Source: Methylocystis sp.
GTDB lineage: Bacteria > Pseudomonadota > Alphaproteobacteria > Rhizobiales > Beijerinckiaceae
Direction: 5' to 3'
NCBI RefSeq assembly: GCF_046349115.1
Contig: NZ_JAXMCX010000001.1
Location: 890,963-954,962, forward strand
Length of the DNA stretch: 64,000 nucleotides
The notes under the pieces were generated by a model. That model ran no database searches. It had not been told where the DNA came from and saw nothing but the letters and a program-made list of their open reading frames with translations. The translations under genes were made by a program, and so were the position numbers. Below, piece after piece: positions 41,370 to 46,301 of this stretch; the first letter of the stretch is position 1, and each line of letters begins with the position of its first letter.

Positions 41370-41651
41370 TCACGGCTTCCGGGCGCTGATCGATTCGAGT
41401 TCGAAGCGGGTAGTTCTGAAAAATCCCCTTCCTCCCGCACGCGTTAGATATTTTTGGCCGATGGCTGAGCAAAGCAATTTGAACCAATCATCTTCGCTCA
41501 AAAGGGGGGGAAGGTTGCTGATATGCCCGATCGATCCGTCCGGTCGGAAACGGATGTGAACAAGAACAGGATTGGCGGCCTCGCTCTCATCGCCTTTTGG
41601 TGCGGTTGGCGACGTCTCGGCGCTGACGCGAAGTGAGCTGATTGCAGCCAT
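41370..41651 (-). CDS. 93-aa hypothetical protein downstream of a ModE-type box
   Basis: RBS GGTAGGAG; globular-looking core 'VLVHIRFRPDG...WF..L...GGRGFFR'. Confidence 0.65.
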   Translation of the reverse strand: MAAISSLRVSAETSPTAPKGDESEAANPVLVHIRFRPDGSIGHISNLPPLLSEDDWFKLLCSAIGQKYLTRAGGRGFFRTTRFELESISARKP

Positions 41652-41689
41652 CTCGTGTGGTCTCCTACCGCGGCTCTCAACCGCCGCTC

Positions 41690-41718
41690 ATCGTTAAGTA
41701 GTAAGTGTATATAACGAT
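41690..41718. promoter_or_regulatory. ModE/Mo-box-type operator 1
   Basis: ATCGTTAAGTA-GTAAGTG-TATATAACGAT compared with the ModE/MopAB consensus ATCGCTATATA-N6/7-TATATAACGAT: right half exact, and the outer CATCGTTA/TAACGATG is a perfect 8-bp inverted repeat. Confidence 0.8.
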
Positions 41719-42140
41719 GCTCCGTAAACAAGCTTAATTTTTAGGCGGTTTGTTTCGTTTGAAGGGGAAAATGACGCGGGGATTCTTCTGTCGCAGCTCA
41801 TCGTGGCGATCTTCTCGAAAAGCTGAGTTCCACCGGTCGGCCCTTGGATTGCCCGCCGTCGGCGCGTGCCGTCGAGCAATGATGTGGGGGGGGCCGTCTC
41901 GCACTTGCGAGTGAAAGACGCTCCGACCAATCGAAGCATCAGCAGCCCGTTGTTGCAGCGGTTCCGTGTCAGCTCTTCGCCGATCAATATTGAATCGGCG
42001 CTGACGCGACGGCCGATTCCTCGCGTCGAGTAAAACATGGGCGATTTGCCTGCGCGAACGACATAATGTTGCGGTTCGGCAACACTCATAAACAACTGAA
42101 AGAAGCTCGAATTATATGCTTGCGGCGCAGCCTCGGATCG

Positions 42141-42165
42141 CGGTGTATATATGAAATATATAGCG
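42141..42165. promoter_or_regulatory. ModE/Mo-box-type operator 2
   Basis: CGGTGTATA-TATGAAA-TATATAGCG, the same 25-bp CG..CG core with a 7-bp spacer; ends 30 bp before the TBDT ATG. Confidence 0.65.
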
Positions 42166-42194
42166 TATAATAAATACGCGACCGAGGGGCTCAA

Positions 42195-44549
42195 ATGGTT
42201 CGCATCCGAAAACTCCGTAAACGCAATATCGGCGCCGTCGGGGCGGCCGTTTCGCTCGTGGCGCTGCTTTGCGCACAGGGCGCGAGGGCGCAATCGACTT
42301 TGCCGACGATCACCATCGGCGCGAGCGGCGGCGAAAACGACGCCGCTCCTGCGCCTCAGTCCGGGTCACGCGGTCCAACCCCGAAGCGAAGTCCGATTAT
42401 CGGCGTCGCGCCGGAGTCGCCCTCGACGACCTATCGCGTCGATAGTCGGGGCATTCAACTTGCGACGGGCGGCGGCGGAACCAATCCAATCCGAGCGGTC
42501 GGCTATCTTCCATCCGTGGATGCGCCGCCGATCGATCCCTACGGACTTGCGAATCTACCCGGCAGCTTCAAAGGCATACGCATCCGCGGCGAGGTGAGCC
42601 AGCATGGCAACAGCATCACGCTCGTCGACGGACTGCCGATTAACGGCATCAATCCCGGACCTGGCTCGACGATGATGATCGACAGCGAAAATCTGTCGAG
42701 GATTGAACTCTACCAGGGACCCGTGCCGTCAAACATCAATTCCTACTTCACGCTGCCCGGGGTGATCGACACGCGCATCAGATGGAGTTCCGACAAATTC
42801 GGCGCCGAAGCCTCTCAGTCCGTCGGTTCGGTGAGTTTTCTGAGAACTTTTGCGCGCATCGACTCGGGGGCGTTCCTCAATGGCACGACCAAGTTCTTTC
42901 TTTCCGGCTCCTGGACGGACGCCCATGCCTGGCGCGGGCCGGGCAAAGCGCCGCAGGGAAAGGCCAGCTTCGCAGTGGGCATTGAAACGCGGCCGACCGA
43001 TTTTTTCGAGGCCAAGGTCTTCATCGCCAAGAGCAATTATAACGCCAATACCTACGCCGGTCTGAACTACAATCAGGTGACCTTCCTCGGCGCCAACCGT
43101 TTCTATAATTTCCTTCCCGTATCAAGCAGCGTTCCGGCCTGGGCCGTCAACTACTACAACTACAATATGCAGTCCTTCGACAGTTGGACCGCGCTCGGCG
43201 AATTCACGGTGAGGTTCAATGATGCGACGCGTCTCGTCGTCAAGCCCTATTATTTCCGGGAGGATGGATACTATCTCGACGGCATGGCGAACGGCATGGT
43301 TCGCAATTGGCTGATCAATCACGACAGCTACGGGGTCACGAGCGAGCTGCAATCGCGCATTCTGGAAACGGACGTCACGATTGGCCACTGGTATGGCGTG
43401 CAGAACCTGCCAGGACCGCCGAACGCCTGGCAGATGTATGCGCCGAACGCGTTTGGCGGATTGACGAACCCAAATTGGTCAATCCTCGCCCAGCAGACGG
43501 GGTCTCATGTCAATAACTCGGCCTATGGCGTCGCTACGCGTAATTTCGGGCCGCTGCGCGCCACCGGGGGCTTCCGCTATAATTGGGAGACGATGGCCGG
43601 CATAGACGAGCGCACGGCGACGGGACTTGGCGCATTTCCCTACAATCTGGCGCTCGCTCTGTCGCCAAGCATCATTCCGACGCGCAGCGTCGACAGCTTC
43701 ACCGTCGGAACGGCGCTGCCCTTCGGGGCGCTGAGCTACGACGTCACCGACAATCTGCAGTTCAGAGTAAGCGGCGGCGGCGGCTATGGCGGGCCCTCCT
43801 TCGATGTGTGGCCTGCCTATCAGCAGAACTCCGCCACTTTCCTCAAGAACGGATTAACCGCCAATCAGGTTTGGCGGTCGATGCGGCCGGAAACGGCGGC
43901 AATGGTCGACGCCGGCGCGCGTTGGACATTCGATGAATGGTTCGGAGCGGGCTATATCCAGCCGATCGCGTATTATTCGCGCAATCACCACAAGGCCGTC
44001 ATCTACGACCCCGGCATCGGAACCCCATATGGGCAGAACGTCGGCGAAAGCGAAAATTACGGCGCCCAGGCCATCGGGCAAATTTCTCCGATCGAGGGAA
44101 TCGACCTGTTCGGCTCCGTCGGCTATCAGCGCGCCGTCTTTGTCCAGGATCTTCCCTCCTTCGCGACCGCATCCTTGCTCACGCGCTTCAATAACCAGGT
44201 GAACGGACGGCAATTGCCTGACGTTCCCCACTGGATTTCAACGGTGGGCGGCAATCTGAGGTTTTTGGACTTTATCGTCACCCCGATCGTCCACATCGTC
44301 AGTTCGCGTTCCGGCGACACGACCGGGCTCCAGCCGATCGCCGGCTATGCGACGCTGGATCTAAATTTCGGCTATGAAAAGAACGTGGGCTTCGGGACGC
44401 TTAACGCCAGTCTGGCTGTCTTAAACGTCTTCGACACGGCCTATATCGGACAGATCAGCAACGGTTATTATCAGCAGACGTCGAGCTCGGGAATTTACTT
44501 TCCTGGCGCGCCGCGCACGATCATGGCGAAGATCGGATATCGCTTCTGA
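42195..44549 (+). CDS. TonB-dependent outer membrane receptor
   Basis: Signal peptide ending ARA; TonB-box-like 'STLPTITIG'; plug motif 'IRIRG...TLVDGLPIN'; 'NLRFLD...GYATLDLNFGY', 'VLNVFD' and 'PGAPRT'; C-terminal 'IGYRF'. Confidence 0.93.
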   Translation: MVRIRKLRKRNIGAVGAAVSLVALLCAQGARAQSTLPTITIGASGGENDAAPAPQSGSRGPTPKRSPIIGVAPESPSTTYRVDSRGIQLATGGGGTNPIRAVGYLPSVDAPPIDPYGLANLPGSFKGIRIRGEVSQHGNSITLVDGLPINGINPGPGSTMMIDSENLSRIELYQGPVPSNINSYFTLPGVIDTRIRWSSDKFGAEASQSVGSVSFLRTFARIDSGAFLNGTTKFFLSGSWTDAHAWRGPGKAPQGKASFAVGIETRPTDFFEAKVFIAKSNYNANTYAGLNYNQVTFLGANRFYNFLPVSSSVPAWAVNYYNYNMQSFDSWTALGEFTVRFNDATRLVVKPYYFREDGYYLDGMANGMVRNWLINHDSYGVTSELQSRILETDVTIGHWYGVQNLPGPPNAWQMYAPNAFGGLTNPNWSILAQQTGSHVNNSAYGVATRNFGPLRATGGFRYNWETMAGIDERTATGLGAFPYNLALALSPSIIPTRSVDSFTVGTALPFGALSYDVTDNLQFRVSGGGGYGGPSFDVWPAYQQNSATFLKNGLTANQVWRSMRPETAAMVDAGARWTFDEWFGAGYIQPIAYYSRNHHKAVIYDPGIGTPYGQNVGESENYGAQAIGQISPIEGIDLFGSVGYQRAVFVQDLPSFATASLLTRFNNQVNGRQLPDVPHWISTVGGNLRFLDFIVTPIVHIVSSRSGDTTGLQPIAGYATLDLNFGYEKNVGFGTLNASLAVLNVFDTAYIGQISNGYYQQTSSSGIYFPGAPRTIMAKIGYRF

Positions 44550-44643: not shown

Positions 44644-45477
44644 TTAGACCGCGGACGCTTTGGTGTGAACGATCGTCCCGACATGCTCGCCGCGCAGCGC
44701 GGCGGTAAGTCGGCCCGGCACGAGACCGTTGACGACTTGCACATGTTCGAGGTGGCGAGCGGTCCGCATAACTTCGACGAGCGCCCGGTCGAATGGCAAT
44801 GGGCCTTCCTGTTGCGCGAGCTGCGCGGCGGTCGTCTCGCGGAGCAACTGCGCCTTTTCCCCGCCTGGCCCCTTGGGATCGGTCGTGTAAACGCCGTCAA
44901 CGTCCTCCACGATCGTCAGTCCGGCGGCGCCGAGCGCGTCTGCGAGCAGAAACGCGCCGGTATCAGCCTTGTGAGGCGGAATTCGCGAGGTCGGAAATTC
45001 ATGGTGGTGATAGGGAGGAAAAGCGCTGCCCACGACCGCTCGGGCGGCGGACAGGTGGATGGCGAGCCGACTTGCGATGGTCGGGTGCTCGATATAGGAG
45101 ACCCCCTCCGGCGCAAGCAACGACGCGAGTATGTGGCCGTTCTGGCCGGCCTCGTTGGCGGCGAGGGGGGCGAGCGACCCGACCGGCAGGCCGAGGTCGA
45201 GTCCAACGCTGTAGAGATGGCGCGCCCGCACGCCGGCGCCGGTGAGAATGAGCAGACGGTGCTCGGGCAGCAGCTTTCTGATCTCCTCCACGATCGGGAG
45301 GATCGCGTCTCGGCCGCGATCCATGATGGATCGGCCGCCGATCTTCACGACTTGCAACCACGGGAGGAGCCGGATCGGACGTCCGCCGGCGACCGGGCGT
45401 GTGAGCTCATTATCGAGGAGCGTCTGGCGCGCGAGCGGGGAAGCCACGTGCTTGATGCTATCGTCTGTATGGGTCAT
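44644..45477 (-). CDS. mosA: Molybdenum storage protein (MoSto) alpha subunit
   Basis: '[13 protein letters not shown]', '[14 protein letters not shown]' and '[11 protein letters not shown]...[16 protein letters not shown]' match the Azotobacter MosA sequence as I recall it; start trimmed to the ATG at 45477. Confidence 0.93.
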
Positions 45478-45488
45478 GGCGGAAACTC

Positions 45489-46301
45489 TTAGCGGGCTGT
45501 GATGATGGTGCCGACATGCTCCCCGCCGAGGGCGCGGGTCAGATTGCCGGGGATGAGGCCATTCACGATCTGCACCTGCGGGATATGGCGCGCAGCCTTC
45601 AGCAGATCGAGCACGGGGAATTCGATGATCGAGTCGTGCAGTCCCTGCGCCTTCATTTCGTCGACCGAAATTTTCGGGATGAATTTCGCGTTCTTGGACG
45701 TCTTCGGATTGGCGGTATAGAGCCCGTTCTCGTCCTTCACGAAAACCATCGCCTTGCAGCCGAACTGCTCTGCGATAAGGAAGCACCCCGCGTCCGTGCG
45801 GTAGGGCGGGATGACGCCATCGGGCGCGAGGCGCGTCCAGAGGCCGTAAGGCGGCATGCCGCTGAAAACCACGGCGTTCACCTCGGCGAGGTAGAGCGGC
45901 ACGGCCGAGAGCCCGGCGCTGGCGACGACGGAGATGCCATATTTCGCGAGGAGCTGACCGATCATCGCGGCGTTCTGATCGGCGACTGAGGCGCCGAGTT
46001 GCGTGAGCACGCCCGCGGGCAGATTAAGTCCCGCCGCGATCGAGTAGAGATGCCGGGCTCTTGTGCCGGCGCCGGCGCCGATAAGCATCTGGTGCGACTT
46101 GCGAACGGCGACAATCTCCTCCACCAGCGGGTAAAGCGCCGCGCGGCCGCGGTCGATGACGCTTTGTCCCCCGATCTTGATGACCGTCGCGTCCGGGAGA
46201 ATGCGATAGTCCGCCGCCGCCTCCGCCGCCGCCAAAAGCTGCGGGTCGCTGAGCGACCGCTGCATCAGGAGCGCCTCGAGTTCTGTCGTCGTATTGGCCA
46301 T
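45489..46301 (-). CDS. mosB: Molybdenum storage protein (MoSto) beta subunit
   Basis: '[22 protein letters not shown]', '[19 protein letters not shown]' and '[13 protein letters not shown]' match Azotobacter MosB as I recall it; paired with mosA. Confidence 0.93.

Follow-up and report, generated by a model that had tools for sequence, protein, structure and literature searches.

In Escherichia coli, molybdate-bound ModE occludes the -10 region and the start site of modA. Rhodobacter capsulatus MopA and MopB, when molybdate is bound, repress mopA-modABC, anfA and morAB via molybdenum (Mo) boxes (PMC6925177), and the Mop protein of the same organism is more abundant at low Mo (PMC6925177, Table 1). 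The ModE of the archaeon Methanosarcina acetivorans binds RTTATGT-N8-RCATAAY, as determined by electrophoretic mobility shift assay (PMC12327845). Here we describe a small gene, orf93, and the predicted ModE operator in front of it, located in a 64,000-nucleotide stretch of Methylocystis sp. (contig NZ_JAXMCX010000001.1, positions 890,963 to 954,962), referred to below as the window. The placement of orf93 in the predicted ModE regulon, as a new member, is well supported. With moderate confidence, we further propose that orf93 is a monocistronic, ModE-repressed Mo-starvation gene, whose product would be an accessory that routes scarce Mo to cofactor synthesis.

Like the Mo-boxes of E. coli modABC and of R. 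capsulatus, the site is an A/T-rich palindrome of CGnTATATA-N-TATATAnCG type at a presumed Mo-starvation promoter, and the cognate regulator combines a helix-turn-helix (HTH) with two TOBE domains. It differs from those boxes in its half-sites, GTTAT(A/G)TA, in its 7-nt spacer, in being a predicted operator, and in serving a gene for a small protein that is not a transporter or a regulator of nitrogenase. Most boxes of the Methylocystis type have the sequence GTTATGT...ACATAAC and thus share the half-site of the M. acetivorans motif, whereas the heptamers are spaced by 9 nt here and 8 nt there, and just one Mop domain is present in the archaeal ModE. On the plus strand, the box reads ATCGTTAAGTAGTAAGTGTATATAACGAT. 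The right half, TATATAACGAT, is exact, and two positions of the left half, ATCGTTAAGTA, deviate from ATCGnTATATA. The inverted repeat at the termini, CATCGTTA...TAACGATG (41689-41696 and 41712-41719), is perfect over 8 bp, which extends the palindrome to 41689-41719. In gene orientation the box is ATCGTTATATA-CACTTAC-TACTTAACGAT, and 38 bp separate it from the ATG of orf93. An exact-palindrome search for a perfect box gave no match; the site is therefore near-consensus, not perfect. In a scan of the whole 3.33-Mb, 63% G+C genome with the consensus ATCGnTATATA-N5-8-TATATAnCGAT, it was the sole site with at most two mismatches, where 0.0008 would be expected from base composition. A weight matrix trained solely on ten boxes from other genomes also ranked it first in the genome (38.6 bits), followed by two sites of 32.3 and 31.4 bits and then a gap to 22.4 bits. 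The box is far beyond chance.

The orf93 product has 93 amino acids (aa) and a mass of 10.1 kDa; it contains no hydrophobic or transmembrane segment and is therefore assigned to the cytoplasm. Residues 1-27 form an acidic, variable and disordered tail, and the core, residues 28-90, is basic (isoelectric point 10) with the order of elements beta-beta-alpha-beta-beta-alpha in an AlphaFold2 model built from a 44-sequence alignment (mean predicted local distance difference test score, pLDDT, of 79.7; 88-94 in ten-residue blocks over residues 31-90). Nine close homologs, at 60-76% identity, were found among 5.8 billion protein clusters, and their alignment shows strong conservation at residues 28-93 versus variable residues 1-27. 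All six orthologs for which DNA was compared have exactly 93 codons and share the N-terminus MAAIS.LR, and the GGAGA block of the ribosome-binding site is kept in 6/6 aligned upstream regions of close orthologs. Pairwise ratios of non-synonymous to synonymous substitution rates among the six are 0.21-0.43 overall and 0.14-0.30 in the core. Because of the common length, the low core ratios, and the conserved N-terminus and ribosome-binding site, orf93 is a real gene, and it is under purifying selection. Neither orf93, nor its nif-linked paralog, nor the homolog in Methylocystis sp. JAN1 (both described below) matches any Pfam or NCBIfam profile even at E = 1, and the same holds for the TOBE profiles PF03459 and TIGR00638. 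These results uphold what an earlier, sequence-only reading of this DNA had claimed, namely a near-consensus Mo-box (exact right half, 8-bp inverted repeat) upstream of a small cytoplasmic protein with a conserved-looking core and no molbindin or TOBE motif.

Every orthologous locus compared carries a Mo-box approximately 25-40 bp before the ATG (7/7 distinct loci: the window, the Methylocystis-type contigs L001/L015, L007, L008, L014 and L016, and the more distant JAN1 locus L017, at 48% identity). The flanking genes and the sequence farther upstream differ among the seven. In L001, L007, L008 and L014, an operon of yqeB-like, DUF2478 and ykgJ genes runs divergently next to orf93, and in L007 both orf93 and that operon have a box of their own. 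In the JAN1 locus, a ykgJ-type gene abuts orf93, with the yqeB-like/DUF2478 pair about 6 kb off. The modC-modB genes lie 0.2-5 kb from orf93 in L001, L008, L014 and L016. A homologous box also precedes the copy in L021, and a distant relative (L046) has a 21.8-bit box about 87 bp upstream. In addition, three predicted proteins of 113-114 aa from metagenomes have as N-terminus MYSIYIT, MYYFYIT or MYIYYIT, which is the translated Mo-box; the calls start inside the box, and the box is therefore present there too. We note that in four homologs from metagenome calls (P0003, P0006, P0008 and P0010) the start was placed 20-21 codons upstream of the true one, at an ATG that belongs to the Mo-box. The resulting false N-termini, MY(S/Y/I)(I/F/Y)YIT, offer a convenient way to spot Mo-boxes in protein databases.

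The genome encodes one full-length ModE (C2:690407-691246) with a LysR-type HTH (HTH_1) and two TOBE domains, scoring 94.6-96.7 bits against TIGR00637, just below the cut-off of 98.5, and 142 bits against NF007957. The second-best box of the genome (C2:689935) stands directly before an operon for a solute-binding protein, a di-haem oxidoreductase and a TonB-dependent receptor, adjoining modE. The third-best box (C2:57524) stands directly before an operon of yqeB-like (TIGR03309-related, 149 bits), DUF2478 and CxxCxxCC (YkgJ) genes, 4 kb from mop-modBC and modA; mop-modBC and modA have weaker boxes of their own (C2:64135 and C2:67098). The genome's own Mop is encoded at C2:63559-63759. A full-length ModE, the best box of the genome, and a box kept before every ortholog examined despite differing neighbours bear out the sequence-only proposal that orf93 is a new Mo-regulon member.

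The two other high-scoring loci have features of their own. In C2:683000-691300 (L013 2102-6964), the 32.3-bit box lies 10 bp before the gene for a 433-aa solute-binding protein, which is accompanied by a PF06537 di-haem oxidoreductase and an 810-aa TonB-dependent receptor; this operon is divergent from modE, and a weaker second box (14.2 bits) lies in that intergenic region. In C2:55286-57552 (L012 3775-6053), the yqeB-like gene encodes 289 aa, with the box some 40 bp upstream of its ATG; a paralog of this gene with 57% identity resides at C2:578066-578962, in the nif/fix region.

The alignment of six upstream regions from close orthologs reveals a conserved block in the order AT-rich stretch, CTTGTT, TAnAnT 17 nt on, and GGAGA, with conservation stopping upstream of the AT-rich block. 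CTTGTT-N17-TAnAnT is invariant in all six, and TAnAnT falls in the middle of the box; we infer that these elements form the orf93 promoter. Because the Mo-box is centred on this conserved promoter-like motif, repression by ModE-molybdate is predicted, and orf93 is most likely expressed under Mo starvation. Motifs for a NifA upstream activating sequence or for sigma-54 are not conserved upstream of orf93 and its orthologs, two TGT-N10-ACA strings being found in L007 only. An Rfam search of the window returned three tRNAs and no riboswitch or small RNA in the 543-bp intergenic region between orf93 and the divergent receptor gene.

Searched with a profile, a set of 1.84 billion representative proteins yielded 105 clusters at E <= 0.001, nearly all of 55-130 aa, with a common core of about 65 residues, hhHVRFxPDGxV..I.ERP..L...WF..L......Y..LAGGRGxFR. 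The string HxRFxPDG...WF..L...GGRGxFR is invariant or nearly so in the nine close homologs and in the 44-sequence family alignment, as the sequence-only reading had surmised of its core; P48, W56, L60, G74, R75 and F78 are invariant in the family, and R34, G73, G76 and R79 nearly so. None of the known profiles for small nif accessory proteins (NifT, NifZ, NifW, NifX/NafY, NifQ, DUF3024, DUF6129) matches the family. The relatives sampled are labelled 'hypothetical protein', unnamed, or not called as genes, and literature searches on the DegT/nifZ/nifT context and on Methylocystis ModE found no description of the orf93 gene. By these searches, the orf93 family appears to be a rare, undescribed and unnamed family of small proteins.

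The same genome contains a 73-aa paralog (39% identity, C2:595009-595230) as the last gene, X, of an operon in the order NifS-SIR2_2-NifB-NifZ-DUF3024-DegT-type aminotransferase-2Fe-2S-ferredoxin-like-X. The order DegT-ferredoxin-X recurs in other Beijerinckiaceae genomes, a Methylococcus plasmid and a Pseudomonadales metagenome-assembled genome, and in one metagenome contig modA-modB-modC directly follow X. On a Bradyrhizobium symbiosis plasmid, a family member follows nifT-NifZ-NifZ-DUF3024-DUF6129, and the genes adjoining nif-type members match the NifZ, NifT, DUF3024 and DUF6129 profiles. Other members stand beside two yqeB-like genes and a ModE-like HTH gene (L018, L022), beside modA/modB-like genes (L021), beside modE (L033, L034), or beside yqeB-like/DUF2478 genes and a molybdopterin oxidoreductase (L046). 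Most of the copies next to yqeB-like/DUF2478/ykgJ, modE or modAB genes have a Mo-box. In all, approximately 28 of the roughly 33 distinct loci examined have a nif maturation operon or a Mo uptake or regulation context; the exceptions and uninformative contexts are L049, L026, L029, L030 and very short contigs. By maximum likelihood, orf93 and the other yqeB/mod-linked copies group in one clade (support 95/96), and the context labels are clustered on the tree (0/500 shuffles as low). The linkage to nif and mod genes that the earlier reading had suggested looking for among homologs is therefore present, with orthologs beside yqeB-like/DUF2478/ykgJ and modBC genes and with the paralog and many distant relatives inside nif operons.

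The family also follows nitrogen fixation among 121 sampled genomes of the bacterial family, being present in 11/16 diazotrophs versus 2/105 non-diazotrophs (Fisher p = 2e-10); the sample holds 13 genomes with the orf93 family, 15 with true nifH and 16 with NifQ. A role of the family in place of NifQ was rejected, since NifQ occurs in all 16 diazotrophs, including those with the family. A divergent nif-linked subclade (L036, L037, L039, L040; Beijerinckiaceae genomes G055, G002, G009, G062) has in its second strand a CxxC motif (GECVFCGE or GLCTSCGE), and GGRGxFR is replaced by GGRAAFY; those genomes also have a canonical-type copy. We note that the genome of the window has two nifH copies with identical scores (459.6 bits), at C2:568744-569565 and C2:615922-616743, on opposite strands and 47 kb apart, which suggests that nifH is duplicated or that a large inverted repeat brackets the nif region.

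In the mechanism that we favour, a molybdate-bound ModE dimer would occupy the orf93 promoter, covering the -10-like motif, and plentiful molybdate would keep the gene off. When Mo is scarce, orf93 would be turned on along with modABC, the yqeB-like/DUF2478/ykgJ operon and the binding-protein/di-haem/TonB-receptor operon, and its product, judged from gene context, would help to route scarce molybdenum to cofactor synthesis. The two copies may divide the labour, the nif-controlled paralog serving during nitrogen fixation and the ModE-controlled orf93 under Mo starvation. The orf93 product may contact molybdate, Mo cofactors or YqeB-like proteins, and we speculate that an oxyanion or an acidic partner could be accommodated by the basic core and by the Arg/Gly-rich GGRGxFR loop. 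A bolder and more specific version, which we offer tentatively and think unlikely, is that the family is a missing cytoplasmic Mo-trafficking factor: the GGRGxFR loop, together with Cys61 in the Mo-type copies, would bind molybdate or a Mo intermediate and pass it to NifQ/NifEN for FeMo-cofactor synthesis (nif-type copies) or to XdhC/YqeB-like proteins for insertion of the molybdenum cofactor, Moco (Mo-type copies), with the paralogs wired to NifA and ModE, respectively.

The niche thus proposed is that of the molbindins (Mop, ModG; TOBE fold), which are likewise small, cytoplasmic and encoded beside modABC or nif genes; however, orf93 has no TOBE match, and its predicted beta-beta-alpha-beta-beta-alpha order is not that of an OB-like beta-barrel. 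NifQ, the Mo donor for FeMo-cofactor synthesis, resembles the orf93 family in its location in nif clusters and its restriction to diazotrophs, but has no sequence relation to it, and the family lacks a Cys-rich cluster motif.

Several observations weigh against the proposed role or its generality. Co-occurrence of DUF2478 with the orf93 family is only moderate (10/13 versus 38/108 genomes), and the family is much rarer than DUF2478 (13 versus 48 of the 121 genomes). Five of the 16 diazotrophs are without the family, and none of 400 randomly drawn Alphaproteobacteria, for which up to 12 candidates were scored per genome, has it; neither nitrogen fixation nor Mo use in general therefore requires the family. 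Among members of the Mo-type clade, L049 has neither a box nor Mo neighbours, and L018 and L022 have no clear box. The candidate promoter hexamers are weak, CTTGTT being a poor match to TTGACA and assigned by conservation only, and a generic scan for sigma-70 promoters and terminators did not report them. On the side of the protein, no known molybdate-site residue pattern is present in orf93, a sequence-profile search of the PDB found no relative, and a Foldseek search of the PDB with the model gave nothing significant (best E = 0.26, template-modelling (TM) score 0.31), so neither search gives a biochemical hint.

The strongest alternative accepts ModE regulation and denies Mo handling; orf93 would then encode a small regulator that binds nucleic acid or protein, or else a stress protein, and would simply share its expression with nif and Mo genes. 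The basic core (isoelectric point 10) would fit such a function, the weak Foldseek matches are mostly RRM, KH and GUCT-type RNA-binding alpha/beta domains (E = 0.26-1.5), and no metal-ligand motif is invariant across the family, in which the invariant residues are P, W, L, G, R and F only. These matches are, however, not significant (TM 0.16-0.34), whereas the DegT-ferredoxin-X order within cofactor-maturation operons, once directly before modABC, is the pattern of an accessory factor and not of a regulator, and Cys61 is retained in the Mo-type copies while it is missing from most nif-type copies. We consider this alternative unlikely.

A second alternative keeps the Mo connection and reverses the sign of regulation, the box being a ModE activator site through which molybdate would switch orf93 on, as for E. 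coli moaABCDE, dmsA and napF, for a role in Mo-replete metabolism or storage. ModE both activates and represses (PMC12327845), the promoter hexamers are assigned from sequence conservation, and orf93 lies 3 kb from MoSto genes in the genome of the window. However, of the 38 bp between box and ATG, 15 are taken up by the ribosome-binding site and its spacer, which leaves no room for a -35/-10 pair downstream of the box, and the activator geometry therefore does not fit. Moreover, the sole conserved promoter-like motif brackets the box, and the orthologs accompany starvation genes of the modABC type, not MoSto. Activation is accordingly a distinctly improbable reading, and repression under sufficient molybdate is the direction that we retain; the sequence-only reading had named no direction.

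A further suggestion in the sequence-only reading was a partnership with MoSto (positions in the window are given in Table 1). Two adjacent MoSto-like genes, mosB and mosA, do share a 5-kb stretch with orf93, at a distance of about 3 kb; the receptor gene intervenes on the other strand, and no Mo-box of at least 12 bits precedes them. No MoSto match occurs within 8 kb in any of the six ortholog loci (L001, L007, L008, L014, L016, L017), and the place in the window's genome that corresponds to the ortholog position, from the yqeB-like operon to LysR/modC, holds unrelated DNA. Thus orf93 and its operator seem to have moved as one unit, apparently recently, to the present receptor/MoSto site, which argues against a specific MoSto partnership. 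That orf93 is a MoSto partner or assembly factor is very improbable, and this part of the earlier reading is not sustained. In L001 (9612-13670, a Lake Tanganyika-type contig), integrase, IS91-type transposase and IS21 genes adjoin the Mo locus at its modA end, which fits mobility of the Mo region between strains. The 380-aa open reading frame of the first MoSto-like gene almost certainly starts later, to give about 276 aa.

It is scarcely credible that the Mo-box serves the divergent receptor gene or a non-coding transcript, with orf93 incidental or no gene at all, since, although the receptor gene shares the 543-bp intergenic region, 477 bp lie between the box and the receptor ATG, the receptor has a weak box of its own, the spacing of 25-38 bp to the orf93 ATG is kept in seven loci whose neighbours differ, purifying selection acts on orf93, and the region has no Rfam match. 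The Mo cluster of L007 (1-4584) has a receptor of the same length (784 aa), 75% identical over the visible terminal 146 residues (the contig is cut), which adjoins an LLM-type flavin oxidoreductase and a FecCD/Peripla_BP_2 siderophore-type ABC importer; the receptor system could be one for Mo-regulated metallophore uptake.

Table 1. Features at the orf93 locus, in window coordinates.
Feature	Position	Strand	Remark
orf93 coding sequence, 93 codons, ATG start	41370..41651	minus	from the list of open reading frames
Ribosome-binding site AGGAGA, 9 nt 5' of the orf93 ATG	41661..41666	minus	read from sequence
ModE-type Mo-box (predicted operator), 29 bp	41690..41718	palindrome	best site of genome
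Candidate -10 hexamer TACACT, in box spacer and left half	41704..41709	minus	TAnAnT conservation
Candidate -35 hexamer CTTGTT	41727..41732	minus	invariant in six aligned upstream regions
Conserved AT-rich block before candidate -35	41733-41745		columns invariant in six upstream regions
Weaker Mo-box-like palindrome, 28 bp before divergent TonB-dependent receptor gene	42139..42167		5 consensus mismatches; 10.9 bits (matrix)
TonB-dependent receptor gene, 784 aa, Plug domain	42195-44549	plus	
mosB and mosA, two adjacent amino-acid-kinase-fold (MoSto-like alpha/beta) genes	44644-46301		converge on receptor gene; 36-37% mutual identity

In sum, orf93 and its relatives define a conserved, apparently unnamed family that is nearly confined to the tails of FeMo-cofactor operons and to predicted ModE operators beside genes for Mo uptake and XdhC/YqeB-like proteins. 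The path of Mo from ModABC to NifQ/NifEN and to the Moco pathway is poorly understood, and the orf93 family is a candidate component of it. If orf93 should be unrelated to Mo handling, it would still be an ordinary new member of the regulon. In either case, the locus extends the predicted ModE regulon of the alphaproteobacterial methanotrophs, whose nitrogen fixation and formate and nitrate metabolism depend on Mo.

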